DNA from: Smutsia gigantea
Taxonomy: Eukaryota
DNA length: 64,000 bases
Direction: 5' to 3'
Assembly: GCA_032199065.1 (NCBI GenBank)
Contig: JAVSCE010011590.1
Location: 236,551 to 300,550, forward strand
A program made the translations under genes and the position numbers. Within the stretch, counting starts at the first letter, position 1, and the number at the start of each line of letters is the position of its first letter. The notes under the pieces were generated by a model. It was not told where the DNA came from and ran no database searches. It saw nothing but the letters and a program-made list of their open reading frames with translations. Shown in pieces: positions 16,821-64,000 of the stretch.

Positions 16821-16943
<123 letters not shown>

Positions 16944-18081
16944 TGATGGTTCAACATTCGAAAATCCATCAACATCATCCACCACATCAACAAAAAGGAC
17001 AAAAATCACATGATCATCTCCATAGATGCTGAAAAAGCATTTGACAAAATTCAATATCCATTCATGATAAAAACTCTCAACAAAATGGGTATAGAAGGCA
17101 AGTCCCTCAACATAATAAAGGCCATATATGACAAACCCACAGCCAACATTATACTTAACAGCAAGAAGCTGAAAGCTTTTCCTTTATGATCGGGAACAAG
17201 ACAGGGATGCCCACTCTCCCCACTTCTATTCAACATAGTACTGGAGTTCCTAGCCATGGCAATCAGACAACACAAAGAAATAAAAGGCAACCAGATTGGC
17301 AGGGAAGAAGTTAAATTGTCCCTGTTTGCAGATGACATGATATTGTACATAAAAAACCCTAAGGAATCCACTAAAAAGCTATTAGATCTAAGATCTGAAT
17401 TCAGCAAAGTTGTGAGATACAAAATTAATACACAGAAATCTGTGGCATTCCTATACACTAACAATGACCTAGCAGAGAGAGAAATCAGGAAAACAATTCC
17501 ATTCACAATTGCATCAAAAAGAATTAAATACCTAGGAATAAACCTAACCAAGGAAGTGAAAGACCTATACTCTGAAAACTACAAGACACTTGTGAGAGCA
17601 ATTAAAGAAGATGCCAATAAATGGAAACACATCCGGTGCTCATGGATAGGAAGAATTAATATTGTGAAAATGGCCATCCTGCCTAAAGCAATCTACAGAT
17701 TCAATGCAATTCCAATCAAAATGCAAACAGCATTCTTCAATGAACTAGAGAAAATTGTTCTAAAATTCATATGGAACCACAAAAGACCCCGAATAGCCAA
17801 AGCAATCCTGAGAAGAAGAATAAAGCTGGGAGGATTATGCTTCCCAACTTCAAGCTCTACTACAAAGCCACAGTACTCAAGACAATTCGCTACTGGCACA
17901 AGAACAGACCCATAGACCAATGGAATAGACTAGAGAGCCCTGATATAAACCCAACTATATATGGTCAATTAATATACGATAAAGGAGCCATGGACATACA
18001 ATGAGGAAATGACAGCCTTTTCAACAGCTGGTGTTGGCAAAACTGCACAGCTACATGCAAGAGAATGAAACTGGATTATTG

Positions 18082-18347
18082 TTATACGGGTAAATATAGT
18101 AACCACATTGTTTTTGCATGTGAAACCTTCATAAGAGTGTATATCAAGAAACCTTATTAAAAAAAAAGTCTTACATGATGGGACAGTCAGATTCAATGTA
18201 TGGCTCTTCATTCACTAATGTTCATAAAACCAACTGTGAATAATATTTGGTGAACAATAGGAAAATTTAAATATAGACTGACTATTAGATGACAGGAAGG
18301 AATTATTAATCATTTTATTAAATATGATAATGTTATGTTAAAAAAAA
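18082..18347 (+). mobile_element. Short 5'-truncated L1 insertion with a 3' transduction. It has about 86 bp of L1 3' terminus plus poly-A (18159-18167), then about 170 bp of non-L1 sequence ending in a second poly-A (18340-18347). It is flanked by a 15-bp TSD gaaactg[g/c]attattg (18067-18081 and 18348-18362) and is inserted inside the L1-A ORF2.
   Basis: The L1-A ORF2 reading ...MKLDYC | [16 protein letters not shown] resumes exactly after the second TSD copy. The insert begins with the L1 3' terminus ttatacgggtaaatatagtaaccacattgtttttgcatgtgaaaccttcataagagtgtatatcaag. Confidence 0.75.
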
Positions 18348-18731
18348 GAAACTGCATTATTGTTTAACCCCATACACAAAAGTAAACTCAAAATGGATCA
18401 AGGACCTGAAAGTAAGTTAGGAAACCATAACACTCTTAGAAGACAACATAGGCAAAAATCTCCTGAGTATAAGCATTAAGGACTTCTTTCTGAATGCATC
18501 TCCTCGAGCAAGGGAAACAAAAGCAAAAATGAACACATGGGACTACATCAAACTAAAAAGTTTCTGTATGGCAAAGGACACCATCAACAGACCAAAAAGG
18601 CATCCTACAGTATGGGAGAAGATATTTGTAAATGACATATTAGACAAGGGGTTAATATCCAAAATATATAAAGAATTACATGCCTCTACACCCAAAAAGC
18701 AAATAACCCAATTAAAAAATGGGCAGAGGAT

Positions 18732-24148: not shown

Positions 24149-25394
24149 AATGGGCAGAGGATATGAAGAGACAGTTCTCCAAAGAAGAAATTCAGATGGC
24201 CAACAGGCACATGAAAAGATGCTCCACATCACTAATCATCAGGGAAATGCAAATCAAAACCACAATGAGATATCACCTCACACCAGTTAGGAGCCGCCAT
24301 CCAAAAGAGTAAGAACAACAAATGCTGGTGAGGATGCAGAGAAAGGGGAACCCTCCTACACTGCTGGTGGGAATGTAAGCTAGTTCAACCATTGTGGAAA
24401 GCAATATGGAGGTTCCTCAAAAAACTAATAATAGAAATGTTTGTTTGACCCAGGAATCCCACTCCTTGGAATTTACCCAAAGAATACAACTTCTCAGATT
24501 CAAAAAGACATATGCACCCCTATGTTTATTGCAGCACTTTTTACAATAGCCAAGATACGGAAGCAACCTAAGTGTCCATCAGTAGAATGGATAAGGAAGA
24601 AGTGGTACATATACACAATGGAATACTATTCAGCCATAAGAGGGAAACAAATCCTGCCATTTGCAACAACATAGATGGAGCTGGAGGATATTATGCTCAA
24701 TGAAATAAGCCAGATGGAGAAAGACTAGTGCCAAATGATTTCCCTCGTTTGTGGAGTATAAGAACGAAGCAAAACTGAAGGAACAAAATAGCAGCAGACT
24801 CAGAGACTCCAAGAAGGAACTAGTGGTTACCAAAGGGGAGGGGTGTGGGAGGGTGGATTGGGAGGGTGGGAGAAGGGGGTTGATGGGTATTATGTTTAGT
24901 ACCCATGGTTTGGGGGTTCACGGGGAAAACTGTGTAGCACAGAGAAGGCAAACAGTGAATCTGTGGCATCTTACTACACTGATGGACAGTGACTGCATTG
25001 GGGTATGAGTGGGGACTTGATAATATGGGTAAATGTGGTTACCACATTGTTTTTCCATGTGAAACCTTCATAAGAGTGTATATCAATAATACCTTAATAA
25101 AAAAAAGAATTTGTCAGCAGATCACAAGTCTTGGAAGATGGGGACTGCCTGAGGAGAACAGACTTATGTCAAAGAAATCATATTAAAAACATGATCACGA
25201 TGTGTTTTTCTCACTTAGGATTTGAGTGGTGCTTCTGTGTGGATAGGGCATTTAGAAGTAAATTTTGGAAGTCAAAATAGTGGACTTGGGGAAACATTTT
25301 TATGGCTTGAAGGAATAATGAAACAAAGTATGGGAATTAGGATAGTCTCAGGAGGACTGGTATAATTGATCACCATGTTAGAGAAATCTAAGAC

Positions 25395-31234: not shown

Positions 31235-31355
31235 GGGTCCCACCTGGACAGAGTGGGACAAGAGATGGCAAGAGTGACCCTAGGAGTCTGTGGTTGGCTG
31301 GGCCTGCAATTTCCCTCAGCTCCACTCTGGGGCCTGCCACCCTTGGGGCTCCTAC

Positions 31356-32280
31356 CTGAGAGTGGAAGCCAGAATGTTGGAGTCGCTGTAGAAATCCTGT
31401 CCACCACACACGTAGAGTTCACTTCCTGCTAGGCTAGCAGCCCCATGGCGGAAGCGCCCTGGGGCAGGCAGGGCTGGCAGCTGCCCCCACTCCACAGTCC
31501 GAACCAGTCCCGTGCCACAGCAGAAGGCCCGGGCCCACCACACTGCTCGGGATGGCTGCCTTATGGCCATGTCCGATCGGAGCCCATCCCCGCCAATCAC
31601 TACCAGTGCCTGGTCAGGCTCCCTCCGCCTCTCTTGACCTGGAACCTCAGCCTCCACCATCAGCTGATGCAGCAAGTCAGGCGACAGGGGCGGAGGCAGC
31701 CCGGCTGCCCGTACCCTCCGCAGCTCTCTAGTGGACATACGGCCAAAGCGGACACATCGCAGCAGGGCCTTGGCCTCCGACTCCTGGGTCTCGGGGTTGG
31801 CAGCGAGCCAACACCGTGCAGCCACAAAGGCTTCGAACTCCTCCTGCACATGTAGCTCATCGCTGTCTAGGAGTTCAGCCAGACGGGCAGCCGGTAAAGA
31901 AGGGAAAGTGGAGCACAGAGCCACAGCAGGCAGGTGCATGAGGAGGTAGTGACGGGCTTTGCTCCACAGCCTCTCCAACCCCGGGACTTCAGCCATGGGG
32001 AGCAGGGCCAGGCAACGGGCGGGGCTGAGGCCCTGTGCCAAGGCTCTCTGGCACAGGGCCAGGCAAGAAGCACTCTGGTACTGCAGAGCAGCCTGGGCCG
32101 CTCGCAGCAGTCCTGGCCACCGCGCCCGAATGACCCCAGAGTAGGCAAAAGAGACAAGGAGTCGCAGGTCCTGGGCAGAGACGGTGTGTAGAGACACCTC
32201 TGTCCCCTGGGATTCCCTCATCCCGCTCAGGAGCATGGCCCCAAAGAACTCGCTGCCACAGGCCAGTGCTGCCCGGTGCA
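31356..32280 (-). CDS. KLHL-family gene, large exon encoding the C-terminal half of a BTB domain, the BACK domain and the first Kelch blade.
   Basis: A textbook acceptor (ccctctctgcttctcctccttgcag) sits at 32281-32305; the donor is ctctcag then gtaggagcc. It translates to (V)HRAALACGSEFFGAMLLSG...LVSFAYSGVIRARWPGLLRAAQAALQYQSASCLALC...ARCLALLPMAEVPGLERLWSKARHYLLMHL...ALVVIGGDG...GSELYVCGGQDFYSDSNILASTLR. An in-frame TAG lies 9 codons upstream of the acceptor, so the exon must be spliced. Confidence 0.75.
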
Positions 32281-34379
32281 CTGCAAGGAGGAGAAGCAGA
32301 GAGGGGTCCAGAATGCTGCAAACTGCTAGGCACTATCCCGACTTCACAACCCCGGCTCTGGGCCAACCACCCAAGGCCACAGGCCCAACCATGGTGTGCA
32401 TCAGAATGCCATGGGGTGCTTGATAAAATACAGGTTTCAGAGACCCACCCCCACAGAGTCTGAGTCAGTCACCTGGATGGATACCCTAGGGATTCGTATT
32501 TTAACATTTTCAAGCACCCTGCATGATTCTCATGTTAGTGGCCTGAAGATACTGTGCTAGACATTGGTTTAGTCTTTTTGATCCAAGTCAGTTGGAAAGT
32601 CTTGATGGATCAAGTTGAGAAGATGCTACAGACAGCATTTGAGAATAGACAAAATAAACTGCAGAGACCAGTTGCAACTTATACAGGTCTCTCTACATTG
32701 TGCATGGAATAAAATTCCTTTACAATCTTAAGAGCCATTGACATCAGCCATTCTGTTAGACAGATTATACTCAGAAAGTGATACCACATTCAGGGATGGC
32801 TGTAACCTAACTTCTTCTAACTGACATCTCCTCTTGCCCAAGACCCAGTGCTTAAGATTTTCTATGTATTCTAACTCTTTCCCACACACACTCCACAGCT
32901 GCCCCAGCCCCGCCTCCAGCCCACCCCATCTCAGTATAGGTCATGGAATCATGACTTTTTTTTTGAATCATGACATTTTAAACTGGAAAGCTTTAAAATC
33001 ATCTTGTTCAAATGTTCTTTTTTAAGATAAGGAAACTGAGTCCTAGAGGAAGGAAGGGATCTATTTTCTATTCTATTGGTGGCTCTCTGGACAGATCTTC
33101 ACCACCCACTGTCACTGATGTCAGGCTGTTAGTACCCTATTTATCTACATGACCGACATGACACTGAAACTGTTCTATTAACAAGTGCAGTTAAATAACT
33201 GGACCTCATATGCTTTCTAATTGAGATACTTCACATCAAAAATGGAATATTCTGACCAAAATATTTAATTTAAATCTAATCAAATCTTTAGATCTAATTT
33301 CAAGTTCAAAGGAAATTGAGAGGCTAAAGGAACAAATTAAACAAAAGGGAAAACACACGCAAATCTGGATAACAGATCTCTCAATAGGATAACCTGTCTT
33401 GTTTCTTCAATAGGTCAAATCTGAAAAAAAAAAAAAGGAGAGAGGACAGTACAAGAGTAAAGGAAGCTTGGGTAGTGAACATCGGAGCACAGCATGGTCC
33501 TTGATTGGTTCCTGGGTTGAACAAACCAGCCCTAAAAGAGATTTTTTTGGACAAGTGGGGCAATTTCTGTGTGGATTAGGCAATATCCTTTAATAATAAT
33601 TCCTTTTGTTAATTTTGTTGGACATGATAAAGATATTGGGGTCATATGAGAAACGGTCCTCTTTTAAAGAGAAACACACCCAAGTATTTATGAGTGAAAT
33701 GTCACAGATTTACTTTAAACTTCAGTAAAAGCAAAATAAAATACGGAGATGAAACAGATATAGCAAAATGCTCATTGTTAAGTCAGGGTGATGTTTGTGT
33801 CCTCCTCAAATTCCTATGTTGAAGCCCTAGTCGCTAATAGGTTGGTATTTGTAGGTGAGGCCTTTGGGAGGCTATCAGGTATGAGAGTGAGACCCTGTGA
33901 ATGGCATTTGTGGCCCTATAAGGGGAGACATGAGAGATGATTCTCCCTCTGCCATGTGCGGATACAGTGAAAAGGTGGCCTCCTACAAACCAGGGAGAAG
34001 ACCCTAACTAGAACCTGACCATGCTGGTACCCTGATCTGGGCTGCCGGCCTCCAGAACTGTAAGAAATACCTGTAGGTACAAGACCCAGGCTATTTTTTT
34101 TTAAGTAGCCCAAGCTGACTAAGACAGGATGATTTTTCTTCTGGGAATCCCAGAAACACTTTTGAGTCCCAGTCATTCCTCTCATAGGCTGCAGCTATGT
34201 GACGTCAGACATGTCTTGAAGTCTGACTTCTTTATCAAAGTCTAAGAGCTGAACTAGTTAATCTCTAAGCCAATCCCTTTTAGTTTTAAACTGTTATGTG
34301 TCTGTATTCTGACTCCATTTGCCAGGTCCTGTGTGTCTGGTCCTGTGTGTCTTTGCTTTGGCTGTGTAGAAGGCACTGC

Positions 34380-44900: not shown

Positions 44901-47410
44901 CAGTGTCCCGTAAGAGTTTTTGTGAGCAGTCCCCCTGAGTATCTGGAGGAGAAACACACCAGTGAGCAGGACATGAAAACCCAAGGTTATGCCTAAAGTG
45001 CAGAAGCCAGGAAGGGGAGGGGAGGGTGTTGGGCCACTTGCCCAGATGGAGGGATAGGAAAAGGTGCTGGGAAATGTAGGCAAATGTCCGGTTCCTCTCT
45101 CGTCTTGCCCTAGGATACGTGCCCTCCTCAGAAGGTTCAGGCTTGGCTCCCAGCATGTGACTCAACTACCTGACCTCACAGGCAAACCTCAGGACATGAG
45201 ATCAGGACCCAGCCCCTGCCCCAGGGCACTCCTGCTCTGCCTGCCCTCCTTCTTCACAGAATAGCAAGGAGCAAGTGTCAGACAAGCTATATTCTAACAA
45301 GCAGTGGGAGGAGGAAGTGAACCTTGAGGACTGTGGTGGGGAGTAAGCACAAGTAGCTATGGGCTCTACTTACATCAGAACGGGGTTATTCTTACCAGTT
45401 TGGAAAAATCAAGGATCTTAGGCAGCAAAACAGAGAAAAACTGTAAAGTGAGGAAGCTTTATTTTTCCTAAATTCCTAAGGCAGACATTTCAGGGAAAAG
45501 ATACTTCCTGCTCCTTGCTGAATCTAGAGTTTCTTTCTCTGCAGCCAAAAGGCTTTCAAAGACCTGGTGGCCTTACACCAGTTGCAAAAAGCACCACCAA
45601 AAGGGAGACTTGGAATCTACTTCTCTGAGCACTCCTGCTCCTTCAGGCTACATCTCTGAGTGGGATCTGCAGGCAAACCAAAAGCAGGTACATAGGAACA
45701 GGGCCAGCAAGTGGGGCAACTGTCTCAGAGTACAAGCTGATAATGGCACATACCCTGCCCTCTGCTCGGTCTTCCCAACCATGTAGTCGGAGTGGCACAT
45801 GTGTCTTCGTGAAGTCCTATGGCAATATTCCCAGGACGCTGCCCTCATAGTTATGTGAGTGTGGGAAAATGCCAAGCTGCAGGGCAAAGATCCCAGGGGT
45901 AGGGCTGGACCAAAGGCTAGATAAGCTGAGAAACAGGCCGCATTCCTCACGCTGCCTTCCTTAACAGGGGCCTGCCTATGATCCCTCGGTCAGCCTGCCC
46001 TGGGGCCCTGTGCATGGCCTGGCTGGAGATGCTGTCCAGGGGCCTGACACCCCCCATTGCCTTCATCCATGGGCATCAGCAGGACACACTGCCCCTGTAC
46101 CACCAGTGAGAGACTGAGGAGAGACTGAGCCCGGAGGAGAGGCCCACACCTCAGCGCTCAAGGAGCCATGATCTTGGCTCAGCAAACTTGGCGGGGCTGT
46201 CCTTGGGAGGCCTCAAGCAAGAGCCCAAAGCTTCCTAGGAAAGAACTTCCATTCTGAGCGACACCGAAGGGGTGACAGTGCTAAGGAAGATCCTCCATCT
46301 CACTCCATGACATTAATAAAAGCCTAATACCCAAGGCTAATGTGTAATAATATGCTTGGTTCCCATTTATAAAATCAACTCCCCACGCCTGCAGGGAAAG
46401 AGATCATTCCTGTTCTCAAGTATTTTCAAGGAGAGGAATTTATCTTCTATCTCCATCCCAAACTGTTTCACCCCTAAGTTTCTGATTTTGAAATTCGATG
46501 TTTTAGCACATGTTCGACCATTTATGGGTCTATACTTGGTAAATGAAAAAGTGTTTAGCACCACTTTCTACTTAATAACTCATCAGAAACTTACTCTTTT
46601 CCCAACCTCATATGATCTCAATTCTTTTTACCTTTCAGCTTATCTCCCCCATCAGCTTATTCATTCATTCAGCAAATACTAATTCAATGTCCACAATGCA
46701 CCAGATCCTATTCTAAGTACTGGGAAATGATATGGTGATGAATGTGACAGGCTAGTGATCCCCTCCTCTCACAGAGTTTATGTTCTAATAGGAGAAGATA
46801 ATAAACATAAAGAGAACTTTAAGATTAGAAGGTGATTAAGCACTACCAAGAGAAACGAAACAGGGGAGGGGGCTCGAAAGTGCTGAAGAAGTGCAATTTT
46901 AAGTAGGTTTGTCAATTTTAAGTAGACCTCACTGAAAAAGAAAAAATGTTGAGACAGACTTAGACATGGACTGAATTACATCTGAGGGAAGAGCTTCTCA
47001 GGCAGCGAGAGCAACAAGCATAAAGACCTTGAGGGGCCAGCACAAGCCCACCTTCAGTGTGTAAAGAAAACCCCAAAAGCCAAATTTGCTGGAGCAGAGT
47101 GAACAAGGTGGTAAATACCAAGAAATAAGGTCAAAGCAGTAAATAGGGAGGGGTGGGGCAGATCCTGGAGGGCCTTCCAAGGACTGGTTTTTACTCTAAT
47201 ATGGGAAAACACAGAGGATTTCGAGAAGAGTGACATAATCTGGCTTCTGTGTGAACACTGTTCACTCTGGCTGCTGTGTTGAGTATTGCAAGTGGGCAAT
47301 GATGGAGGCAGACAGACCGGCTATTGCAATCATCTTGGAGATGGATGATTCTGGCTCAGTCTAGGGTGGCAGCAGTGGAAGTGAGGAGAAATGGGATTCT
47401 AGATATATTC

Positions 47411-47640
47411 TTTTTTTTTTAGTTTATTTTGATATCATTAATCTACAGTTAAATGAGTAATATTATGATGATTACACTATCCCCTTCATCAGGTTCACCC
47501 CCCCCAACCCCATTACAGTCACTGTCCATCAGTGTAGTGAGATGCCATAGAGTCACTACTTGTCCTCTCTGGGTTGTACAGCCCTCCCCGTGCCCCCCAA
47601 ACATTACATCTGCTAATCGTAATGTCCCTTCTTCCCCCTT
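47411..47640 (-). mobile_element. 5'-truncated L1 (3' terminus only, about 230 bp), minus strand, with a 10-bp TSD agat[a/g]tattc (47401-47410 and 47641-47650). Its 3' terminus is the subfamily variant also carried by the young L1 at 56092.
   Basis: Poly-T follows the left TSD. The reverse complement of 47421-47640 matches 62100-62243 (...tgacctgatgaaggggtagtttaataaccataatattgcacatgtaggtgtagattaatgataccaaaataaa). Confidence 0.8.
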
Positions 47641-50538
47641 AGATGTATTCTGAAGGCAAAAAAGTTAATGAGATTTGATGAACTGGAGATGAAAAAGAGG
47701 TGTCAAATACCAAGGTGCTTTGAAATGAACAACTAGGATAGAGCTGTCATTAACTGAAATAGGAAAGCCCGCAGTAGTAAGTTTGGGAAAAAAGTTCAAT
47801 TCTGTGTATGTTAAATTTGAGATGCCTATTAAGTATCCAAGTTGAGAATCCAAACAGGAGCTAGATATTCAGGACAGTAGTCTGGGTTAGAGCTAAAATA
47901 TTGAGAGTCATCCCCACTAACAAGATTTTAGTAAGACTGGATGAAATCACTGCACATACATGTGTAACTAGAGCAGCAGTCCGCGGACTGAACTCTAGAA
48001 AGTGAATAGACTGTGAGACATGGCGAAACCAGCAAGGGAGACTAAGAAAGAGCAGTCAGTAAGCTAGGAGGCAAACCAGAGAACAGGTCCTAAAGCCAAA
48101 CAAAGAAAATGTTTCAAAAGGAGGTATGTCAAATGCTGCTGACAGCCTGTGTAAGATGAAGCAGAATATGCCATTTGATTTAGATATGTGCAAGTCATTG
48201 GTGACCATGATAAGAACAGTCTTGGTGGGATGGACTTAATAGGGAACTGGTGGAGAGAACTGGAGACAACTCTAAGATATTTTGCTGTAAAATGGAGTAA
48301 AAAAATAGGAAGCAATTGGAAGGGGAAATGGGAGCAAGAGCGGCTTATATGCCTGTGAAATGAGAAAAATGATGGCATTATTTGTGTGATGATAGGAAAA
48401 TCCAGGAAAGAAAGGGAAATATTGACTCTGTTGAAAAGGAGGATGAACTGTTGAGAGATGTCCTTAAAAGCTAGAGGATGGGATCTACTGTACAGATGTT
48501 TGCACAGGAGCATGGAGTTTGTTTATAACAGGGTTTCACAACCTTGACACTAACAATTTAGCCTAGATAATTCTTTGTTGTGGGGGAAGGTTCTGTGCAC
48601 TGAATGTTATTTCGCAGCATCCACGGCCTCTACCAAGTAACACTGCCTCCCAGCTGTGTCAACCAAACGTCCTCGGGGAACAGAATCACTCCCAGTTGAG
48701 AAACACTGGCATACAGTAACAGGAGGAGAAGCGGGGCACATGGGTATGAATGCTAAAAAGTGATTAGATGTAGTGATGGGAATTTGTGGAATATTTTTTT
48801 CTTGCTTTTATTTTCTCACTAAATTAAGGACCCAAGTAGGAGTGAGAATGGGGAGAGATGTTGGAGATTTGAGGGGTCAGGAGGTATGAAACAAGTTACA
48901 GGAAAAGATGGTGAATGAAAGAATTAGGGAATATTGCTAGGTAACATAAAAGACACACTTAAGTTGCATGGTAAATTTAAAGCCAGCTACGTCAGCTGCT
49001 TTCGCTAGCCCTTTCAGCTGCATGGGTCTAGGCATAAACTACGTCAAAAATTGAGTATGACAAAAGCAAGAGAGAGGCAAGGGAGATGAGGTGTGTGTGG
49101 TTAAAGTGCTCATGACTGGAATTTAGCTGGAGGAGGGAAATGAAGACATGTGGGGGATAAGGGTCAGAAGAAAGGAAATCAATGGACTGTAAGTCCCAGT
49201 GAAGGGATGAACTATTTGATTCAGTGCACTGAAGGGAGGGCACTGGGAAGACAGGAGGTAATGGTGACAGAGTGGGGTGCTTGGGACTGAGATACGGAGG
49301 AGTTGTAGGTCCCGAACAGGCCCAAGGGATTGAGTGGCTGAAGTGGGGGTGGAGGACAAGACCACACCAAGATCACAGGAGAAGCGAAGACTTAAGAGAC
49401 CAGAGCATCAGAAGGATGATGCAGAGGGGTACTGAAATCACGGCCACCGCTAGAGGCACTGGGAGAAGCAGAGACCTCAGGAGTAACCAGGGCTCTGAGC
49501 AAGAATGTGAAGAGAACATGCAGAGAAAGGTGGAGGATACAGGGAATTGTGCTAATTGAAAGTTGGTGAATACAGGGAATTTTGCTAATTGCCTGTTAGT
49601 TTCAGAGAGCACAGAAGAACTTCAGGTGTTGGAAGAGGAAGGTGGATGGAGAGTAATGGTTACTGAAGTGTAAAAGATGAGAAGTGACTTGGTAGTTCGG
49701 GACGTCTTGTGGTGGGCATGATGAGACTGGTTCTGGCAGTCATGGTGGGAAGGATGGAGTCCCCCTCAAGCCCGCCAATGAAGTGTTCGTAGGAGACGTA
49801 GGAGTCAGTGTATGGAAGAGAAACAGTTCTACTCTTGAGTTACAAATTAATACAAAATTAGAGGTGGCTCCAGCCCATTTTGAGGGAAGTCCTGAGTACT
49901 TACCTCAAAGAATTTAAATGAGATGATGAATGTAAAGCAGTTAGCACAAGGTCTGATACTAAAATTATATTAGTTATGATACTACTGTTATGAAGCGGAT
50001 GTTAGAAGAGTACATGAGATATCCACTCAATCTCAGCTCCAGAGCAACAGCCCCCAAGGCGACATGCAGTCAGCCAAGGTGCGGCTCTGACTCCTGCCTC
50101 CAGAGCCATTCACCCCAGCAGCAAGAATTTATCCAGGGAGAACTTTGTATTACTCTTGCACAACACAAGTCTATTAACAACATACGAAACCAAAATTATT
50201 TTATTGCTGAGTCAACTTGAGGTTCAAGTGGATGGGAAACGGGAGTCCCTAGCCTTGCCAGGGCTCCCATGTCAGCATAGAGATTAAGGCCCAGGGCCCC
50301 TGAGGCTCCACCAAGGGCATTACTATCCACTCTGATCCTGACAATCTCGTTAATCCCTCCAGGTCACTTCTACTTCGTCTGTCCGATACCTGTAAAAAGA
50401 ACAGGAAAAACTTGGTGGACAGCTATCCCTTGGCATCTTCCATTCTTCTCACCACTCATGAATCTGGACCCTCTTTCCTGCTGACTTTCTGCCTACCTCC
50501 CATATAACCCTATCCAACCCTTTCCAGGGGGATGTTCA

Positions 50539-51249: not shown

Positions 51250-54200
51250 TCAGGAGTACACTTGCCTGTGGCCAGCATCCGCTGGGCTGCATCCTATGAT
51301 TAAAGAGAAAGCAAACAGATAAAATAATGAATAGTAGACTCTTCTCCTGAAGCCAGGTCAAAAGAGCGACGGGACCACTGCTAATTTCAGGAAAAAACCC
51401 ATTATTGTAGAACCACTGCTGACTCTGAGGCCAGTGCAATTGTGGTGTGTCTTTCACCACGTTCTGGGCAGCTTGTCAGCAAACCACACGTGCCAAATGA
51501 GGCAGGAAAATCAACTGAAAGGCTGTCAGCCAGCTTTCCAGTATGCAAAAGTTGAAGGTTAACTGGGGAAAAAAGGCTCCTAGGAAGTTCACTAACAAGG
51601 AATAAATAGTTTGGTGGGCACAAGGTTTAAGCAGCAGAAACTCATTTTCTCATAGTTCTAGACGCTACAAGTCCAAAATCAAAGTTCCAGCTGATTTGAC
51701 TTCAGATAATCATCATAGTTCTGTATGCAGAAGAAGTGCTTTGAAGGACTGGATTAAAGATGGCAGCATGAGAGGTGAGACAGAGACCTCCTCCTAAAAG
51801 CACATATAATATGAAAATATAATTTAATACAACTAATCCTGAAAGAGCAACAGGAAAGAAGGCTGCATCAGACTGCATACACCCAGAAAAAAAAGAGCAG
51901 ACCTAACGGAACAGGGTAACGTACCAAAGCTGTGACCCGGCGAGGCCCAAGCCCTTTCCCTACCCCAGCTCACTAGCAAGAGGAAGAGAAACAGAGCAGG
52001 CAGGGAGTGGAGGCCTGGGGCCGCTGAACACCTAGCCCCAGAGATCTGCTCTGGGAGCATGAACCTACACTGCATGGTGCTATGGTGATTTAGTGTGGTT
52101 GGAAAGCTAAGACAGGCAGAATACCTGGAAAGATGGAGATTCCAGGTGCTTGTGGAAAATGGATTCATGTCTGGCTGATCTGGGTGGGCAGTCTGAGAGA
52201 CTTCCTAAAAGCGAGAGGGCTGCTAAAGGGGCAAGGATTGCACAGAGCTTAATGCTCAGGAGAAAGGACAGGTAGACAAAACAGTCTGGGTGCACTGTGC
52301 CCAGCAGGTTGGGAGCTTAAACGATCTTCAGGGGCTCCATCCCACTGGCTGGCTATGCAGCTCCAAGGCCCCCCACCATGATACGCAGCCTGCTGTGTCT
52401 TCCTCCCGGCTAGACTGTACCTGGATCAGGCTCGCAAACCGGCAACCCCTGCCCAGGCGTCAGGCCAGACAGAGGGAAGCCCCACCTATGGCAGCTACAA
52501 ACACAAAGCATAGAGGCTTACACCCGTGTGTTCAGCCCACTGGTTCTGGCAGTGTGGACAGGCATAGCAGCTGGGAAGCAGGAAATAGCTCTTTCCTCCC
52601 CCCAAGCACCAACACCGCTCCCCTGTGACCACCAACATTGCTCCAGGGGCTGAGCAGCTCCAGAAAGTAGAGCTTCTGGGCACTAAAGGGCACCACAGAC
52701 AAATTATGAAACGTCAAAGGAACCTGGTTCAAAGCAAAATTATGAACACACCTGAGAAAGATTCAAAGAAAATCAACCTCATGAATCTGTCTGAAAGAGA
52801 TTTCAAAATAAAAATCATTAACATGCTCATGGAGGTACAGAAAAATATTCAAGAACTCAGGAACGAATTTAGGATGGAGATCCAATCATTGAAGAACACA
52901 ATGGAGGGTATTAAAAGCAGATTAGATATGGTGGAGGAGACGATAAATAAAATAGAAATTAGGAAAGAGGAATACAAGGAAGCTGAGGCGCAGAGAGAAA
53001 AAAGGATCTCTAAGAATGAAAGAATATTGAGAAGAACTCTGTGACCAATCCAAGTGGAACAATATTCGTATTATAGGGGTACCAGGAGAAGAAGAGAGAG
53101 AGAGAGAGAAATTGTCTTTGAGTAAGTAATTGCTGAAAACTTCCCCAATATGGGGAAGAATATAGTCTCTCAGGCCATGAAAGTGCACAGATCTCCCAAC
53201 ACAACACCAAGACATATAATAATTAAAATGGCAAAGATTAAGGATAAATAAGGACAAACTATTAAAAGCAGCTAGAGAGAGAAATAAGATCACAAAATAG
53301 AAAACCCATCAGGCTATCAGCAGAAATCTTACAGGCCAGAAGGGAGTCGCATGATGTATTTAATGCAATGAAGCAGAAGGGCCTTGAACCAAGAATACTT
53401 TATCCGGCAAGATTATCATTTAAATTTGAAGGAGGGATTAAACAATTTTCAGATAAGCAAAACCTGAGAATTTACCTCCCACAAACCATCTCGACAGTGT
53501 ATTTTGGAGGGACTGCTATAGATAGAAGTTCCTAAGGTTAAATAGCTGTCACCAGAGGTGATACAAAGGGTTAGACAAAGAGTACAGAATATGATACCTA
53601 ATATATAAAGAATGGAAGAGGAAAAAAGAACTTTAAATGGTGTTACCACAAATCTAAAGCCTGCAATGGCAATAAGTACATACCTATCAATAATCACCCT
53701 AAATGTAAATGGTCTGAATGCACCAATCAAGACACAGAGTCACTGAATGGATTAAAAAACTGTATGCTGCCTACAAGAGACTCACCTCAAACCCAAAGAC
53801 ATAAAAAACCTAAAAGTGAAGGGATGGAAAAAGATATTTCATGAAACTAATAGGGAGAAAAAAGCAGCTGTTGCAGTACTTGTAACAGACAAAACCGACT
53901 TAAAAACAAAGAAAGTCACAAGAGACAAAGAAAGACATTACATAATGATAAAGGGGTCAATCCAATAAGACGAAATAACCATTATAAATATCTTAGCACC
54001 CAACACAGAAGCACCTACATATGTGGAACAAATAGTAACAGAATTAAAAGGGAAAATAGAATGTAATGCATTCATCCTAGAAGACTTGAACACTCCCCTC
54101 ACACCAAATGACAGATCAACCAGACAGAAAGTAAGTAAGGAGACAGAGGCATTGAACAACACATTAGAACAGATGGACCTAACAGGCATCTACAGAACAC

Positions 54201-56805
54201 TCCATCCAAAAGAAGAGGATACACATTCTTCTCAAGTGCACATGGATCATTTTCAAGAATAGACCACATACTAGGCCATAAAAAGAGCCTTGGTAAATTC
54301 AGAAAGATTGAAATTGTAACAACCAACTTCTCAGATGACAAGGGTATAAAACTAGAAATAAATTGTACAAAGAAAACAAAAAGGCTCACAAACACATGGA
54401 GGCTTAACAACATGCTCCTAAATAATCAATGGATCAATGACCAAATTAAAACAGAGATCAAGCAATATATGGAGACAAATGAAAACAACAGCACAATGCC
54501 CCAACTTCTGTGGAATGCAGCCAAGGCAGTGCTAAGAGGGAAGTATGTTCCAATACAGGCCTACCCCAGGAAAGAAGAAAATCCCATATGAACAGTCTAT
54601 ACTCACAATTAGTGAAACTAGAAAAAGAAGAACAAATGAGGCCCAAAGTCAGCAGAAGGAGGGACATAATAAAGATTAGGGCATAAATAAATAAAATTGA
54701 GAAGAATAAAACCATAGAAATAATCGATGAAAGCAGGAGCTGGTTTTTCGAGAAAATAAACAAAACAGATAAACCCCTAGCCAGACTTATCAAGAAAAAA
54801 AGAGAGTCTACACACATAAACAGAATCAGAAATGAGAAAGGAAAAATCACAACAGTTACCACAGAAATACAAAGAATTATTAGAGAATACTATGAAAAAT
54901 TATATGCTAACAAACTGGATAACCTAGAAGAAATGGACAACTTTCTAGAAAAATACAACCTTCCAAGGCTGACCCAGAAAGAAACAGAAAATCTGAGATC
55001 AATTACCAGCAACGAAATTAAACTGGTAATCAAAAAACTACCTAAGAACAAAACACATGGACCAGATGGCTTCACCACTGAATTTCATCAAACATTTAGT
55101 GAAGATCTAATACCTATCCTCCTTAAAGTTTTCCAAAAAGTAGAAGAGGAAGGAATACTTTCAAATACATTCTATGAGGCCAGCATCACCCTAACACCAA
55201 AACCAGGCAAAGACACCACAAAAAAAGAGAATTACAGACCAATATTCCTGATGAACATAGATGCAAAAATACTCAACAAAATATTAGCAAACCAAATTCA
55301 AAAATACATCAAGAGGATCATACACCATGATGAAGTGGGATTCATCCCAGGGATGCAAGGATGGTACAACATTCGAAAATCCATCATCATCCACCACAAC
55401 AGCAAAAAGGACAAAAACCACATGATCATCTCCATAGATGCTGAAAAAGCATTCGAGAAAATTCAACATCCATTCATGATAAAAACTCTCAACAAAATGG
55501 GTATAGAGGGCAAGTACTTCAACATAATAAAGGCCATATATGACAAACCCACAGCTAATATCATACTTAACAGTGAGAAGCTAAAGTATTTCCTCTAAGA
55601 TTGGGAACAAGACAACGATGCCCACTCTCCCCGCTTTTATTCAACATAGTACTGGAGGTCCTAGCCACGGCAATCAGACAATACAAAGAAATAAAAGGCA
55701 TACAGATTGGTAAGGAAGAAGTCAAAACTGTCACTGTTTGCAGATGACATGATACTGTACATAAAAAACCCTAAAGAACCCACTCCAAAACTACTAGAAC
55801 TAATATCGGAATTCAGCAAAGTTGCTGGATACAAAATTAATACACAGAAATCTGTTGTATTGCTATACACTAATGATTAACTAGCAGAAAGATAATCAGG
55901 AAAACAATTCCATTCACAATTGCATCAAAAAGAATAAAATACCAAGGGGTAAACCTAACCAGGGAAGAGAATGACCTATACCCTGAAAACAACAAGACAC
56001 TCCTTAGAGAAATTAAAGAGGACACTAAAAATGGAAATACATCCGATGCTCTTGGGTAGGAAGAATTAATATTGTTAAAATGGCCATCCTGAGGACTTCC
56101 AGGAAGATGGCGGCATGAGCAGGGCAGCAGAAATCTCCTCCCAACACTATATTTATCTACGAAAATACAGCAAATACATCTACTCCTAAAAGAGAGACCA
56201 GAATACACAGGAAAGCGCACAGTGTGCAGCTACACCCGAGAGGACTCGGCACCACAAGAGGCGGGTAAGATACGGAGCTGCGACCCGGCGGGACCCGAGC
56301 ACTCACGCACCCCAGCGCACCAGTGGGAGGAGAGGATTCAGAGGAGGGAGGGAGTGGAAGTACACCCCGTGAAGTAGCCAGCCCCGGTGATCTGTGCGGG
56401 GAGCGCTGACCCACATTGCGCAGTGTAGCGGAGATTGGAGAGACAGAGGGGCAGAATCTGAGCGGGGAACGCGCCAGGGTGCTCGCGGTCGGCTCCCAGG
56501 AAGGGAAAAAAAAAGCGTGCACTTTCTTCAGCGGTCTTAAAGAGACAGGAGCCCAGCGGAGGAGCCGGATCACCCCGGCACACTCAGCCCAGCAGGCTGG
56601 GAGTCTTGGAGAGTTTCAGATGCCTTAGCTGGCGACTGGGGAAGCGTAGCCATACTTACACTTCTCACTAAGATCAACAGCCTCCCATTCGTTCCCACCC
56701 CGGCCAGAGCGATAAAGGGCCCTGCGGAGCGGCACAGTCAAAGCTGCGGAATAGTGGGGCAACAGCACCACCTACAGCATCCCCACAGAATCTACCCCCG
56801 GTGGG

Positions 56806-56912
56806 TGTTTTTTTTGTTTTGTTCTGTTTTTTTTTGGTTTTCTTTTTTGTTTTTTCTTTTCTTTCTTTTTGACTTTCTTTCCTTCTTTTTTTTTCTCTTT
56901 TTAAAGTCTTAA
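56806..56912 (+). repeat. T-rich, (TTTTC/TTTG)n-like low-complexity block inside the L1-D 5'UTR, immediately upstream of ORF1.
   Basis: gtgggtgttttttttgttttgttctgtttttttttggttttcttttttgttttttcttttctttctttttgactttctttccttctttttttttctctttttaaag. Confidence 0.8.
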
Positions 56913-56930
56913 AGAGCCCAGCTGACATAT

Positions 56931-57764
56931 GTGGCAACTACCAGCGACACTTCTAGAGCCGTGAAAAGAAAGAGTAATATGGTTCAGACCAAAATAAAAC
57001 AGACAACCCCAGAGAGGAAGTCTGAAGGGATGGAAATGCACAGTCTTCCTGAAAAAGAATTCAGAATAAAAGTCATAACCATGCTGATGGACCTACAGAG
57101 AAATGTGCAAGAGCTGAGGGAGGAAGTGAGGGAACTGAGGAAAGACAATACAGAAATCAGACAAGCGATCGACGGGCTTAACAGCAGAATGGATGAGATG
57201 CGAGAGACTGTTAATGGAATAGAAAACAGAGAACAGGAGTACAGAGCAGCTGAGGCAGAGAGAGATAAAAGGATTTCTAGGAATGAAAGAATATTAAGAG
57301 AACTGTGTGACCAATCCAAATGGAACAATATTCACATTATAGCAGTACCAGAGGAAGAAGAGAGAGAAAAAGGGATAGAAAGTGTCTTTGAAGAAATAAT
57401 TGCTGAAAACTTTCCCTCGCTGGGGAAGGAAGTAGTCTCGCAGTCCACTGAAGCTCACAGATCTCCCAACACAAGGGACCCAAGGAAGACAACACCAAGA
57501 CACATAATAATTAAGATGGCAAAGATCAAAGATAAAGACAGGGTATTAAAGGCAGCTAGAGAGAGAAAAAAGATCACCTGCAAAGGAAAACCCATCAGAC
57601 TATCATCAGACTTCTCAACAGAAACCTTACAGGCCAGAAGAGAATGGCATGATATATTTAACGTTATGAAACAGAAGGGCCTCGAACCAAGAATATTGTA
57701 TCCAGCACGATTATCATTTAAATATGATGGAGGATTAAACAATTTCCAGATAAACGAAAGTTAA
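56931..57764 (+). CDS. L1-D ORF1, intact at 277 aa.
   Basis: Track ORF 56931-57764: MATTSDTSRAVKRKSNMVQTKIKQTTPERKSEGMEMHSLPEKEFRIKVITMLMDLQRNVQELREEVRELRKDNTEIRQAIDGLNSRMDEM...RILRELCDQSKWNNIHIIAVPEEEEREKGIESVFEEIIAENFPSLGKEV...MAKIKDKDRVLKAARERKKITCKGKPIRLSSDFSTETLQARREWHDIFNVMKQKGLEPRILYPARLSFKYDGG. Confidence 0.85.
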   Translation: MATTSDTSRAVKRKSNMVQTKIKQTTPERKSEGMEMHSLPEKEFRIKVITMLMDLQRNVQELREEVRELRKDNTEIRQAIDGLNSRMDEMRETVNGIENREQEYRAAEAERDKRISRNERILRELCDQSKWNNIHIIAVPEEEEREKGIESVFEEIIAENFPSLGKEVVSQSTEAHRSPNTRDPRKTTPRHIIIKMAKIKDKDRVLKAARERKKITCKGKPIRLSSDFSTETLQARREWHDIFNVMKQKGLEPRILYPARLSFKYDGGLNNFQINES

Positions 57765-60700
57765 GAGAGTTTGCCTCTCATAAACCACCACTACAGGATA
57801 TCTTAAATGGACTGCTCTAGATGGAAGCACACCTAAGGCTAAAAAGATGTCACCAGAGAAAATAAAATCATAGCAAAGAAAGCAGACCATCCAAATACTA
57901 ACTAAAGGCAAAGAATAAAACACCTATTATAGAAAGAATGGAGGAGGACGAATAAGAAGGGAGAGAAATAAAGAAACATCAGACTGTGTTTACAATAACT
58001 TAACAAGAAAGTTAAGTTAGATTGTTAGATAGTAAAGAAGCAACCCTTGAACCCTTGGTAACCACGAATCTAAAGCCAGCAATGGCAATAAGGACATATC
58101 TATCAATAATCACCCTAAATGTAAATGGACTGAATGCACCAATCAAAAGACACAGAGTAACAGAATGGATAAAAAGCAAGACCCATCTATATGCTGCCTA
58201 CAAGAAACTCACCTCAAATCCAAAGATATACACAGACTAAAAGTGAAGGGATGGAAAAAGATATTTCATGCAAACAACAAAGAGAAAAAAGCAGGTGTTG
58301 CAGTACTTGTATCAGACAAAATAGACTTCAAAACGAAGAAAGTAACAAAAGATAAAGAAGGACACTACATAATGATAAAGGGGTCAGTCAAACAAGAAGA
58401 TATAACCATTATAAATATATATGCACCCAACACAGGAGCGCCAGCATATGTGAGACAAATACTAACAGAATTAAAGGAGGATATAGACAGCAATGCATTC
58501 ATTTTAGGAGACTTCAATACACCACTCACTCCAGAGGACAGATCAACCAGACAGAAAATAAGTAAAGACACAGAGGCACTGAACAACACACTAGAACAGA
58601 TGGACCTAACAGACATCTACAGAACTCTACACCCAAAGCAACAGGATACACATTCTTCTCAAGTGCACATGGAACATTTTCCAGAATAGACCACATACTA
58701 GGCCACAAAAAGAACCTCAGTAATTTCAAAAATATTGAAATCCTACCAACCAACTTCTCAGATCACCAAGGTATAAAACTAGAAATAAATTTTAGAAAGA
58801 AATCAAAAAGGCTCACAAATACATGGAGACTTAACAACACTCTCCTAATTAATCAATGGGTTAACGACCAAATCAAAACAGAAATCAAAGAATATATGGA
58901 GACTAATGACAACAACAACACAAAGCCACAACTTCTGTGGGACGCAGCAAAGGCAGTTTTAAGAGGAAAGTATATTGCAATCCAGGCTATTTAAAGAGGG
59001 AAGAACATTCCCAAATGAATAGTCTAAAGACACAATTACTGAAATTGGAAAAAAAAGAACAAATGAGGCCCAAATTCACCAGAAGGAGGGACATAATAAA
59101 GATCAGAGAAGAAATAAATAAAATTGAGAAGAATAAAACAATAGAAAAAAATCAATGAAACCAAGAGCTGGTTCTTTGAAAAAATAAACAAAATAGATAA
59201 ACCCCTAGCCAGACTCATTAAGAGAAAAAGAGAATCTAAACACGTAAACACAATCAGAAATGAGAAAGGAAAAATAACGATGGACCCCACAGAAATATGA
59301 AGACTTATAAGAGAATATTATGAGAATCTATATGCTAGCAAGCTGGAAAACCTAGAAGAAATGGACAACTTCTTAGAAAAATACAACCTTCAAAACTGAC
59401 CAAACAAGAAACAGAAAAACTAAACAGACCAATCACCAGCAATGAAATTGAATCGGTAATCAAAAAACTACCCAGGAAAAAAACCCCTGGACAGATGGAT
59501 TCACCTCTGAATTCTACCAGACATATAGAGAAGAAATAACACCCATTCCCCTTAAAGTTCTCCAATAGAAGAGGAGGGAATACTTCCAAATTCATTCTAT
59601 GAAGCCAGCATCACTCTAATACCAAAACCGGGCAAAGACCTCACCAAAAAAGAAAACTATAGACCAATATCCCTGATGAAAGTGGATGCAAAAATACTCA
59701 ACAAAATATTAGCTAACCAAATTCAAAAATACATCAAGAGGGTCATACACCATGATCAAGTGGGATTCATCCCAGGGATGCAAGGATGGCACAACATTCG
59801 AAAAACCATCAACATCATCCACCACATCAACAAAAAGAAGAACATAAACCACATGATCATCTCCATAGATGCTGAAAAAGCATTTGACAAAATTCAGCAT
59901 CCATTCCTGATTAAAACTCTCAACAAAATGGGTATGGATGGCAAGTACCTCAACATCATAAAGGCCATATATGACAAACCCACAGCTAACATCATACTTA
60001 ACGGCGAGATGCTGAAAGCTTTTCATCTAAGATCAGGAACAAGACAGGGATGCCCACTCTCTCCACTGTTATTCAACATAGTACTGGAGGTCCTAGCCAC
60101 AGCAATCAGACAAAACAAAGACATACAAGGCATCCAGATTGGTAAAGAAGAAGTCAAATTGTCACTATTTGCAGATGACATGATACTGTACATAAAAAAC
60201 CCTAAAGATTCCATTCCAAAACTACTAGAACTAATGTCTGAATTCAGCAAAGTTGCAGGATACAAAATTAACACACAGAAATCTGTTGCTTTCCTATACA
60301 CTAATGATGAACTAACAGAAAGAGAAATCAGAAAAACAATTCCATTCACAATTGCATCAAAAAGAATAAAATAGCTAGGAATAAACCTAACAAAGGAAGT
60401 GAAAGTCCTGTACTCTGAAAACTACAAGACACTCCTAAGAGAAATTAAAGAGGACACTAACAAATGGAAATGCATCCCATGCTCTTGGCTAGGAAGAATA
60501 AATATTGTCAAAAAAGCTATACTACCTAAAGCAATCTACAGATTCAATAAAATCCCTGTCAAACTACCAACAGCTTTCTTCAATGAACTGGAACAAATAA
60601 TTCTAAAATTCATATGGAACCACAAAAGACTCCAAATAGCCAAAGCAATCCTGAGAAGGAGGAATAAAACAGGGGGAATTACGCTCGCTGACTTCAAGCT

Positions 60701-62260
60701 CTACTACAAAGCCACAGTAATCAAGACAATTTGGTATTGGCACAAAAACAGACCGACAGACCAGTGGAACAGAATAGAAAATCCAAACATTAACCCAAAC
60801 ATATATAGTCAATTAATATTTGATAAAGGAGCCTTGGATATACAACGGGGATATGACAGCCTCTTCAGCAGCTGGTGTTGGAAAAACTGGACAGCTACAT
60901 GTAAGAGAATGAAACTGGATTACTGTCTAACCCCATACACAAAGGTAAACTCAAGGTGGATCGTGGATCAGAGACCTGAATGTAAGTCATGAAACCATAA
61001 AACTCTTAGAAAATAACATCGGCAAAAATCTCTTGGACATAAACATGAACAACCTCTTCATGAACATATCTACCCGGCCAAGTGAAACAAAAGCAAAAAT
61101 GAACAAGTGGAACTATATCAAGCTGAAAAGCTTCTGTACAGCAAAGAACACCATCAGTAGAACAAAAAGAGATCCTATGGTATGGGAGAATATATTCATA
61201 AATGTATCCGATAAGGGGTTTACATCCAAAATATATAAAGAACTCATGCACCTTAACAAACAAAAAGCAAATAATCCAATTAAGAAATGGGCAGAGGACA
61301 TGAATAGACACTTCTCCAAAGAAGAAATTCAGATGTCCAACAGGCACATGAAAGGATGCTCCACATCACTAATCATCAGGGAAATGCAGATTAAAACCAC
61401 AATGAGATATCACCTCACACCAGTGAGGATGGCCAACACCCAAAACACAAACAAGAACAAATGTTGGCGAGGATGTGGAGAAAAGGGAACCCTCCTACAC
61501 TGCTGGTGGGAATGCAAATTAGTTCAACCAATCTGGAAAGCAGTATGGAGGTTCCTCAAAAAACTGAAAATAGAAATATCATTTGACCCAGGAATTCCAC
61601 TCCAAGGAATTTACCCTAAGAATGCAGCAGCCCAATTTGAAAAAGACAGATGCACCCCTATGTTTATCGCAGCACTATTTACAATAGCCAAGAAATGGAA
61701 GCAACCTAAGTGTCCATCAGTAGATGAATGGATAAAGAAGAGGTGGTACATATACACAATGGAATATTATTCAGCCATAAGAAGAAAACAAATCCTACCA
61801 TTTGCAACAACATGGATGGAGCTAGAGGGTATTATGCTCAGTGAAATAAGCCAAGCCGAAAAAGACAAGTATCAAATGATTTCACTCATATGTGGAGTAT
61901 AAGAACAAAGAAAAAATACTGAAGGAACAAAACAGCAGCAGACTCACAGAACCCAAGAACGGACTAATAGTTACCAAAGGGAAAGGGACTGGGGAAAATG
62001 GGTGGGAAGGGAAGGATAAGAGGGAAAAAGGGGCATTACGATTAGCAGATGTAATGTTGCAGGGAGCACAGGGGAGGGCTGTAGAACTCAGAGAAGACAA
62101 GTAGTGATTCTGTAGCATCTCACTACGCTGATGGACAGTGACTGTAATGGGGTTGGTGGGGGTGACCTGATGAAGGGGTAGTTTAATAACCATAATATTG
62201 CACATGTAGGTGTAGATTAATGATACCAAAATAAATTATATTTAAAAAAATGGCCATCCT

Positions 62261-62359
62261 ACTTGATAATATGGATAAGTGTAGTAACCACATTGTTTTT
62301 TCATGTGAAACCTTCATAAGAGTGTAAATCAATGATACTTTAATAAAAAATTAAGAAAA
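62261..62359 (+). mobile_element. Tiny 5'-truncated L1 insertion (about 99 bp of 3' terminus plus poly-A) at the same target site as L1-D. It is bounded by the second and third copies of aaaatggccatcct.
   Basis: acttgataatatggataagtgtagtaaccacattgttttttcatgtgaaaccttcataagagtgtaaatcaatgatactttaataaaaaattaagaaaaaaaa is the older-type L1 3' terminus, not the L1-D type. Confidence 0.7.
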
Positions 62360-64000
62360 AAAATGGCCATCCTGCCTAAAGCGATCTACAGATTCACTGC
62401 AATCCCTATCAAAATACCAACAGCATTTTTCCATGAACTGGAACAAACAGTTGTAATTCTTATGGAACCACAAAAGACCCCGAACAGTCAAAGCAATCCT
62501 GAGAAGGAAGAATAAAGCAGAGGGATCTCGCTTCCCAACTTCAAGATCTATTACAAAGCCACAGTAATCAAGATAATTTGGTACTGGAACAAGAACAGAT
62601 CCATAGACCAGTGGAAAAGAACAGAGAGTCCAGATATTAATGCAAGCATACATGGTCAATTTATATATGATAAAGGAGCCATGGATACACAATGGGGAAA
62701 TGACAGCCTCTTCAACAGCTGGTGTTGGCAAACTGGACAGCTACATGTAAGAGAATGAAACTGGATTACTATCTAACTCCATACACAAAAGTAAACTTGA
62801 AATGGATCAAACACCTGAATGTAAGTCATGAAACCATAAAACTCTTAGAAGAAAATATAGGAAAACTCTCTTGAATATGAACATGAGCAATGTCTTCATG
62901 AACTTATATATCTCCACAGGCAAGGGAAACTAAAGCAAAAATGAACAAGTGGGACTCTATCAAACTAAAAAGCTTCCGTACAGCAAAGGACACCAGCAGA
63001 ACAAAAAGGCATCCTGCAGTATGGGAGAATATATTCACAAATGATATATCTGATAAAGGGTTGAAATCGAAAATATATAAAGAGCTCATGTATCTCAACA
63101 AACAAAAAGCAAATAACTCAATTAAAAAATGGGCAGAGGATCTGAACAGACACTTCTCCAAAGAAGAAATTCAGATGGCCAACAGGCACCTGAAGAGATG
63201 CTCCACATCACTAATCATCAGAGAAATGCAAATTAAAACCACTATGAGATATTACCTCACACCAGTTAGGATGGCCACCATCCAAAAGACTAAGAACAAC
63301 AAATGCTGGTGAGGATGCGGAGAAAGGGGAACCCTCCTACACTGCTGGTGGGAATGTACGCTAGTTCAACCATTGTGGAAAGCAATATGGAGGTTCCTCA
63401 AAAAACTAGTAATAGAAATATTTGTTTGACCCAGGAATCTCACTCCTTGGAATTTACCCAAAGAATACAACTTCTCAGATTCAAAAAGACATATGCACCC
63501 CTATGTTTATTGTAGCACTATTTACAATAGCCAAGAAATGGAAGCAACCTAAGTGTCCATCAGTAGATGAATGGATAAAGAAGAGGTGGTACATATACAC
63601 AATGGAATACTATTCAGCCATAAGAAACAAACAAATCCTATCATTCGCAACATGGATGGAGCTGGAAAATATGCTCAGTGAAATAAGCCAGATGGAGAAA
63701 GACAAGTGCCAAATGATTTCCCTCATTTGTGGAGTATAACAACGCCGCAAAACAGAAGGAACAAAATAGCAGGAGACTCAGAGACTCCAAGAAGGAACTA
63801 GTGGTTACCAAAGGGGAGGGTGGGTGGGGAGGGTGGCAGAAGGGGATTGCGGGGTATTCTGTTTAGCATACACTGTGTGGCGGATCATGGGGAAAACAGT
63901 GTAGCACAGAAAAGGCAAACAGTGAATCTGTGGCATCTTACTACACTGAAGGACAGTGACTGCATTGGGGTATGTGTGAGGACTTGATAATATGGGTAAA

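Follow-up and report, generated by a model that had tools for sequence, protein, structure and literature searches.

The present study concerns a nest of L1 (LINE-1) retrotransposons in a 64,000-nucleotide stretch of Smutsia gigantea DNA (contig JAVSCE010011590.1, positions 236,551 to 300,550 of the forward strand; hereafter the window), in which one short target sequence is found three times, around a full-length L1 and a 99-bp L1 3' terminus. Two sequential insertions by target-primed reverse transcription (TPRT) at this single 14-bp target are, with high probability, the best explanation of the structure. The 3' exons of OSGEP are located at 51293-50353 on the minus strand, with 0 mismatches in 123 residues against the Smutsia gigantea OSGEP protein (KAK2498923.1) and 5 against that of Manis javanica. 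Because the other OSGEP exons lie beyond the window end, the nest is placed inside an OSGEP intron, antisense to the gene.

The L1 nest and its threefold target

The nest consists of the following features, in which TSD stands for target-site duplication, FL for the full-length L1, and ins-type for a group of L1 copies with an insertion in the 3' end.

52791-56076, plus strand: 5' part of the host L1, equivalent to full-length L1 coordinates 958-4422, ending in attaatattgTT just upstream of the nick site
56077-56090, plus strand: TSD copy 1, AAAATGGCCATCCT, an exact repeat, followed by an ambiguous G at 56091
56091-62246, plus strand: FL, a full-length but decayed L1, recognised from the map of self-matches and paralogs, its open reading frames (ORFs), its Pfam domains and its absence from the M. 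javanica ortholog
62247-62260, plus strand: TSD copy 2, AAAATGGCCATCCT, an exact repeat
62261-62359, plus strand: 99-bp 5'-truncated L1 3' terminus of the ins-type, 91% identical to other L1 3' ends, with the motif CATGTGAAACCTTCATAAGAGTGTA; absent from the M. javanica ortholog
62360-62373, plus strand: TSD copy 3, AAAATGGCCATCCT, an exact repeat that runs on into the host L1
62374-64000, plus strand: 3' part of the host L1, continuing past the window end, orthologous to M. javanica with about 90% identity as far as about 63300 and ins-type from about 63310

The three copies of the 14-mer are identical. The sequence-only reading had described three copies of a 15-bp duplication, and the number of copies was borne out; the length was not. 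Exact matches to the 15-mer AAAATGGCCATCCTG stand at 56077-56091 and 62360-62374, and 14 of its 15 bases match at 62247-62261, where the last base is A. Since other L1 copies read ggggACTTGATAAT, the 99-bp piece begins with the A at 62261, and the duplication is therefore 14 bp. The G at 56091 may be either the next base of the target or the first base of FL. With a duplication of this length, a later point mutation is needed by neither order of insertion. If the adjoining A residues are counted, the 99-bp piece is flanked by a 17-nt repeat. When up to two mismatches were allowed, four matches to AAAATGGCCATCCTG were observed, compared with 0.27 in shuffled sequence. The motif is L1 ORF2 coding sequence, and the fourth match, also exact, is located at 17667, the equivalent ORF2 position of another L1 copy (copy B).

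The target reads gTT/AAAATGGCCATCCT/g (slashes mark cuts or junctions) and lies within ORF2 of an older host L1 on the same strand. The endonuclease (EN) consensus TT/AAAA is present at the 5' edge of the TSD (attgTT/AAAATGG, 56074-56083), gTT preceding AAAA in the host L1 and its M. javanica ortholog, and gtg or gtc in other copies. There are 64 TTAAAA or TTTTAA sites in the window, and the host L1 has 10 in the sense orientation. The duplication around FL (56077-56090 and 62247-62260) is within the typical TSD range of 7-20 bp, and a third copy of the target is present at the junction between the two inserts (62247-62260), as expected of a double insertion. The flanks, at 52791-56076 and 62374-64000, are the two halves of one older plus-strand L1 and are contiguous in full-length L1 coordinates, abutting at 4422/4419; a reverse transcriptase (RT) domain was found by domain search in the ORF at 54933-55598 of this host L1.

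FL occupies 6,155 bp (56092-62246) between target copies 1 and 2. Its 5' untranslated region (UTR) runs to about 56930 and, measured upstream from the conserved AGATGGCGG, is as long as that of full-length M. javanica L1s. It is followed by ORF1 at 56931-57764 (Pfam Transposase_22 PF02994 and dsRBD PF17490; best matches to Manis L1 ORF1 proteins, 66-71%), by ORF2 remnants at 58165-61902 (EN at 58165-58689, RT at 59676-60374; Pfam Exo_endo_phos PF03372 and RVT_1 PF00078) and by the 3' UTR. The copy is dead, because ORF2 is split into four pieces. Exact-product look-ups of the window ORFs at 59676-60374, 31352-32281, 54933-55598 and 58165-58689 found none on record. The earlier description of a full-length L1 of 6.15 kb was correct, but its "own poly-A" amounts to AAA only (62244-62246), which follows ttatattt and stands ahead of the AAAA of the TSD itself (ttatatttAAA, 62236-62246). 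This end would fit a tail that was short or has decayed, or a few transduced bases.

The 99-bp piece was confirmed to be a 5'-truncated L1 3' terminus with its own tail. Its body (62261-62347) ends in an AATAAA signal and is followed by an A-rich tail of 12 nt, aaattaagaaaa (62348-62359); the 91% identity holds against the last 90 bp of the L1 copies at 25015-25104 and 2356-2268. Co-linearity with an L1 3' end, 5' truncation, an A-rich tail and a flanking TSD are the features of a TPRT insertion, and all four are observed here. Metagenome scans returned 0 matches for the junction of the 14-mer with the piece and 0 for the ins-type 3' motif. The possibility that the piece was copied from the 3' end of the host L1 itself was rejected: over the 19 nt of that end that lie within the window, the host L1 carries the subfamily consensus, where the piece has two private changes.

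The orthologous locus and the ages of the inserts

The orthologous locus of M. javanica (JAMQTK010001641.1:1874104-1910483, hereafter L003) was reached via the M. javanica OSGEP protein (P0324). It aligns to the window in reverse orientation with about 90% identity in non-repeat DNA, and L003 19283-24753 corresponds to window 53628-48208 at 90.2%. The 5' half of the host L1 is orthologous to L003 19184-16724 (89.9%), and the unique flank that adjoins it is about 90% identical. In M. javanica, the host L1 is uninterrupted and reads gaattaatatcgttAAAATGGCTATCCTtcctaaagcaatctacagattc; the site without insert reads attaatatcgttAAAATGGCTATCCTtcctaaagc, and a single copy of the target, AAAATGGCTATCCT, is present on the reverse strand of L003 at about 16737. 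The first 900 bp or so beyond the site are about 90% identical to M. javanica and follow its character states. FL and the 99-bp piece are both absent from this locus. Thus, the comparison with related species that had been proposed from the sequence gave an empty site in M. javanica, the one relative compared. Because the host L1 has an ortholog there, it predates the split between African and Asian pangolins, and because the site is empty, both inserts arose in the lineage of the window after that split. An origin of the empty state by precise excision was rejected, since the private divergence of FL (2.5%) is about half that of the post-split branch.

The 3' half of the host L1 was found to be a mosaic. 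Between 62375 and about 63300 it tracks the M. javanica ortholog (about 90%), and beyond about 63310, up to the window end, it is ins-type, with 92-97% identity to copies A and C3, only some 83% to M. javanica (window 63258-64000 against L003 15040-15700, reverse strand) and a private divergence of 3.7%. Being ins-type, unlike the M. javanica ortholog, at least the terminal 700 bp of the host L1 have been replaced in the lineage of the window. L1-L1 gene conversion, a homology-resolved insertion or a recombination deletion may have brought about this replacement. A third L1 inserted at the same site (from 62375 onward) was considered because the identity to M. javanica is only 85-87% overall; it was rejected, since the first 900 bp or so past the site carry M. 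javanica states and foreign sequence starts only at about 63310.

The two inserts belong to different L1 subfamilies, because the 3' ends of FL and the ins-type differ by an 11-15-bp indel and many substitutions and their overall identity is 82-84%; the alignment of both 3' termini against other L1 copies likewise placed them in different subfamilies. The derived motif CATGTGAAACCTTCATAAGAGTGTA, which includes the insertion of about 11-15 bp, is common to the 99-bp piece and the copies at 2291, 18117 and 25056. Neither FL nor the M. javanica ortholog of the host L1 has this insertion, and a young M. javanica L1 that ends in a long pure poly-A lacks it too; the motif had no match among seven M. 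javanica loci. The young M. javanica L1 carries an FL-type 3' end, so this type is still found in a recently inserted Manis L1.

Private divergence is 27/1092 (2.5%) in FL, 2.5% in its relative at 23000-24113 and 3.0-4.1% in the three ins-type copies; the 99-bp piece has 5 private substitutions in 87 bp. Set against a post-split branch of about 5% (half of the 10% flank divergence), these ages fit insertion after the split from M. javanica, and both L1 families were active after it. The values are suggestive of an ins-type that was on average somewhat earlier than the FL type. The assignment of the piece to an "older" subfamily therefore holds for the slightly higher divergence of the ins-type copies, but not for the 3' end, which carries the derived insertion.

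Probable serial insertion at one target and its alternatives

During TPRT, the L1 endonuclease nicks the bottom strand at TT/AAAA, and the T-rich 3' end primes on the poly-A of the L1 RNA. The top strand is then cut downstream, and fill-in of the staggered cut duplicates the target; at this locus the top-strand cut would fall 14 nt from the nick, and fill-in would duplicate 14 bp. Two such events are the simplest account, because a separate tail and a separate pair of 14-bp repeats accompany each insert and the target is gTT/AAAA. The subfamilies of the inserts differ, as do their truncation points (full length and 99 bp), which is expected of separate events. We infer that the two were separate in time, and their order is likewise inferred.

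Two orders may be proposed. In the first, a severely 5'-truncated ins-type cDNA of 99 nt would have been inserted, leaving a left TSD copy with a complete gTT/AAAA site; the same bond would later have been nicked again, with a 14-nt stagger once more, and FL of the other subfamily would have been inserted. In the second, FL would have come first, its tail making the sequence tTT/AAAAAAA at the right-hand copy (62241-62250), and this new site, 3 nt upstream of the original, would have received the 99-bp piece. With FL first, the second nick may differ, and only the top-strand cut must coincide. Thus, the two TPRT events that had been read from the sequence, with the second inside the TSD of the first, are supported, but the nick has to be identical only where the piece is taken to have preceded FL. 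The view that the small piece preceded FL is modestly favoured, because the ins-type is on average somewhat earlier, and it is not proved.

Several points weigh against serial insertion or against this order. First, a top-strand cut at the same bond in both events would be a coincidence of roughly 1 in 10 for the usual spread of TSD lengths. Second, the difference in age between the 99-bp piece and FL is not significant (Fisher p = 0.08), the test resting on 87 bp and three reference copies. Third, M. javanica is empty and is the only relative compared at the locus, so that a single-filled state was not seen. Fourth, the region consists of nested L1s and was analysed in a single assembly. This last point would favour an assembly artefact, in which a collapse or mis-join of L1 reads produced the 128-bp block made up of the piece and one target copy. 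However, the 99-bp piece carries five private substitutions and ends in a decayed tail of its own, the junctions are base-exact, and copies that are 9-18% diverged are not hard to assemble; we regard an artefact as very improbable.

The presence of a complete 14-bp target copy between the inserts bears on the question of whether a single event produced both. The RT of L1 switches templates, as in U6/L1 and other chimeric retrocopies, and a template-switch event had been named as the alternative to two insertions. A simple switch leaves one TSD pair and no target copy between the parts, yet a full copy is present here, and the simple form of this alternative was dropped. A more elaborate single event may be imagined, in which RT aborts the copying of an ins-type RNA after 99 nt and copies the 14-nt top-strand overhang, and the regenerated ...CCATTTT-3' primer primes again on the poly-A of a second, full-length L1 RNA; in a variant, a second ribonucleoprotein re-nicks the site immediately, in the same cell cycle. 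The three identical 14-mer copies do not indicate elapsed time between the insertions, and the lack of a significant age difference between the piece and FL also agrees with a single event. However, template-switch chimeras have no complete target copy between their parts, the source RNAs would come from subfamilies whose copies differ in mean age, and the overhang-copying form needs several unprecedented steps, with the top-strand end paired to the wrong place. Such an event seems improbable.

The weak tail of FL (ttatatttAAA) is relevant to another explanation, co-mobilisation by 3' transduction, in which a source locus already contained FL, the 14-mer and the 99-bp piece as one unit, which moved here in a single step as read-through RNA. 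The piece adds a downstream AATAAA and an A-rich tail, which is the layout of a transduced segment, and the source locus would share the junction AAAAAAATGGCCATCCTACTTGATAAT with different outer flanks. However, the segment after the FL tail starts with the local target sequence, unlike in L1 3' transduction. The internal 14-mer equals the local target and both outer duplications, so that the same 14 bp would have to be chosen by chance, and the problem of a double insertion would merely be shifted to another locus. We consider this the least credible of the explanations.

The inserts might also have entered separate alleles, one each, and been brought together by a misaligned crossover between the right TSD of one and the left TSD of the other. 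In favour of this scheme, separate lineages have been reported to carry precise parallel insertions at one site (PMC10531181). However, it still needs two TPRT events at the same site, and in addition a crossover on 14 bp of homology; it is less parsimonious than serial insertion and very unlikely. Finally, the re-use of the site might not have been random, either because a fresh TSD, whose left copy retains the whole EN site and adjoins new L1 DNA, is preferentially cut again or because an aborted TPRT of 99 nt was coupled with the full-length insertion at a single lesion. We think this unlikely; if it were true, double insertions with a triple TSD would be far commoner genome-wide than random re-use of TTAAAA predicts.

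Neighbouring features, precedents and implications

Several other L1 copies were observed in the window. Copy A (2268-3981, minus strand) is a 5'-truncated ins-type L1 with its own TSD, aaataaacaaggYggt, and starts at cct/gcctaaagc, 3 nt inside the end of the 14-mer targeted at 56077. Its origin as a retrocopy of read-through from the 56077 locus was rejected, since it has its own TSD and is 94.3% identical to copy B and 88.8% to the host L1. The position of its start is treated as a coincidence, and a pause of RT at this ORF2 position is conceivable. Copy B (14169-18147) has the ORF2 site at 17667 uninterrupted, with gtg instead of gtt before AAAA, and skips from FL coordinate 4835 to roughly the final 50 bp of the 3' end (18097-18147); downstream, at 18339-18730, lies a separate L1 fragment (FL coordinates 4811-5207). 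A composite L1 at 18735-25104 runs from the 5' UTR to FL coordinate 4129, is joined at 23003 to an FL-type segment (FL coordinates 4503-5620, 94.6% identical to FL), and continues with an (AAAT)n-like run (24114-24150) and an ins-type 3' part from coordinate 5164. At 47281-48207, a block of about 927 bp is missing in the M. javanica ortholog (L003 24753-24778) and is therefore a further lineage-specific insertion; it holds a 222-bp FL-type L1 3' end with poly-A (47420-47641, minus strand).

The other genes in the window are TEP1, of which exon 1 is found at 326-1159, and KLHL33, with exons at 30.4-35.7 kb, both on the minus strand. A KLHL33 protein search returned no pangolin record among its results, and an Rfam scan of the whole window gave no matches. 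In the M. javanica annotation (GCA_024605085.1), a product of 3,294 residues fuses KLHL33 with TEP1 domains, and an exon at L003 26333-26377 gives the OSGEP model an alternative C-terminus, RSQRCSLKEQECQEK, where the window encodes the usual RYRTDEVEVTWRD. These oddities, located at L003 34290-36380 and 10001-26380, are probably annotation artefacts.

The elements of the structure at 56077-62373 have precedents. Independent double use of the same L1-endonuclease integration site has been reported for three sites in NF1 and also in APC, F9 and BTK (PMC3219598, Wimmer et al. 2011), and precise parallel retroposon insertions affect 0.01-0.04% of loci in primates and 0.18-0.29% in toothed whales (PMC10531181, Doronina et al. 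2023). In those cases, as proposed here, one nick site or TSD received independent L1-driven insertions, but in different individuals or lineages with one insert per allele, whereas here both are on one chromosome with three target copies. Tandem dimers of non-LTR elements with the target kept in the junction have been attributed to double insertion (PMC5932611, McGurk & Barbash 2018, Genome Res). The tandem transposable element (TE) dimers of R1, jockey, P-element and hobo likewise consist of two insertions at one target with the TSD preserved in the junction, and the non-LTR dimers among them combine two copies with different 5' truncation points, as found here; they are from Drosophila and usually of the same family, whereas the present case involves mammalian L1, two subfamilies and one copy of only 99 bp. 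Older TEs are known to hold preferred insertion positions (PMC2836564, Levy et al. 2010), and the present locus likewise has a new retroelement in an older TE at a good endonuclease site. That study is a statistical survey of human nested TEs, whereas only one ORF2 site is concerned here, and the only other window copy that retains it (17667, with gtg) is uninterrupted.

Measured frequencies of parallel insertion of 0.01-0.29% of loci imply that such cases are to be expected genome-wide. A rough estimate, good to an order of magnitude only, takes one post-split L1-driven insertion in about 7 kb, as observed where the window aligns to M. javanica, roughly one perfect site per kb, one third of insertions at perfect sites and a 2.5-Gb genome; it predicts thousands of doubly hit nick sites per genome, hundreds of them with an equal stagger, and the published cases agree with it in kind. 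Chimeric retrocopies of the U6-L1 type likewise have a 5'-truncated L1 3' end downstream and a second retro-copied RNA upstream; they have a single TSD pair and an internal junction without the target, whereas a full target copy stands at the junction described here.

Thus, double insertion at one target and re-use of an endonuclease site are already known phenomena, of which this locus is a clean example, and the understanding of the L1 mechanism is unchanged. The locus provides a worked, base-by-base example of how an L1 insertion leaves the endonuclease site intact in the left TSD copy, open to a further hit. It is such repeated hits at one site that produce the rare homoplasy seen in retroposon presence/absence markers. 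The structure also documents a lineage-specific expansion of an OSGEP intron by 6.3 kb, and the locus could serve as a two-state marker within African pangolins.

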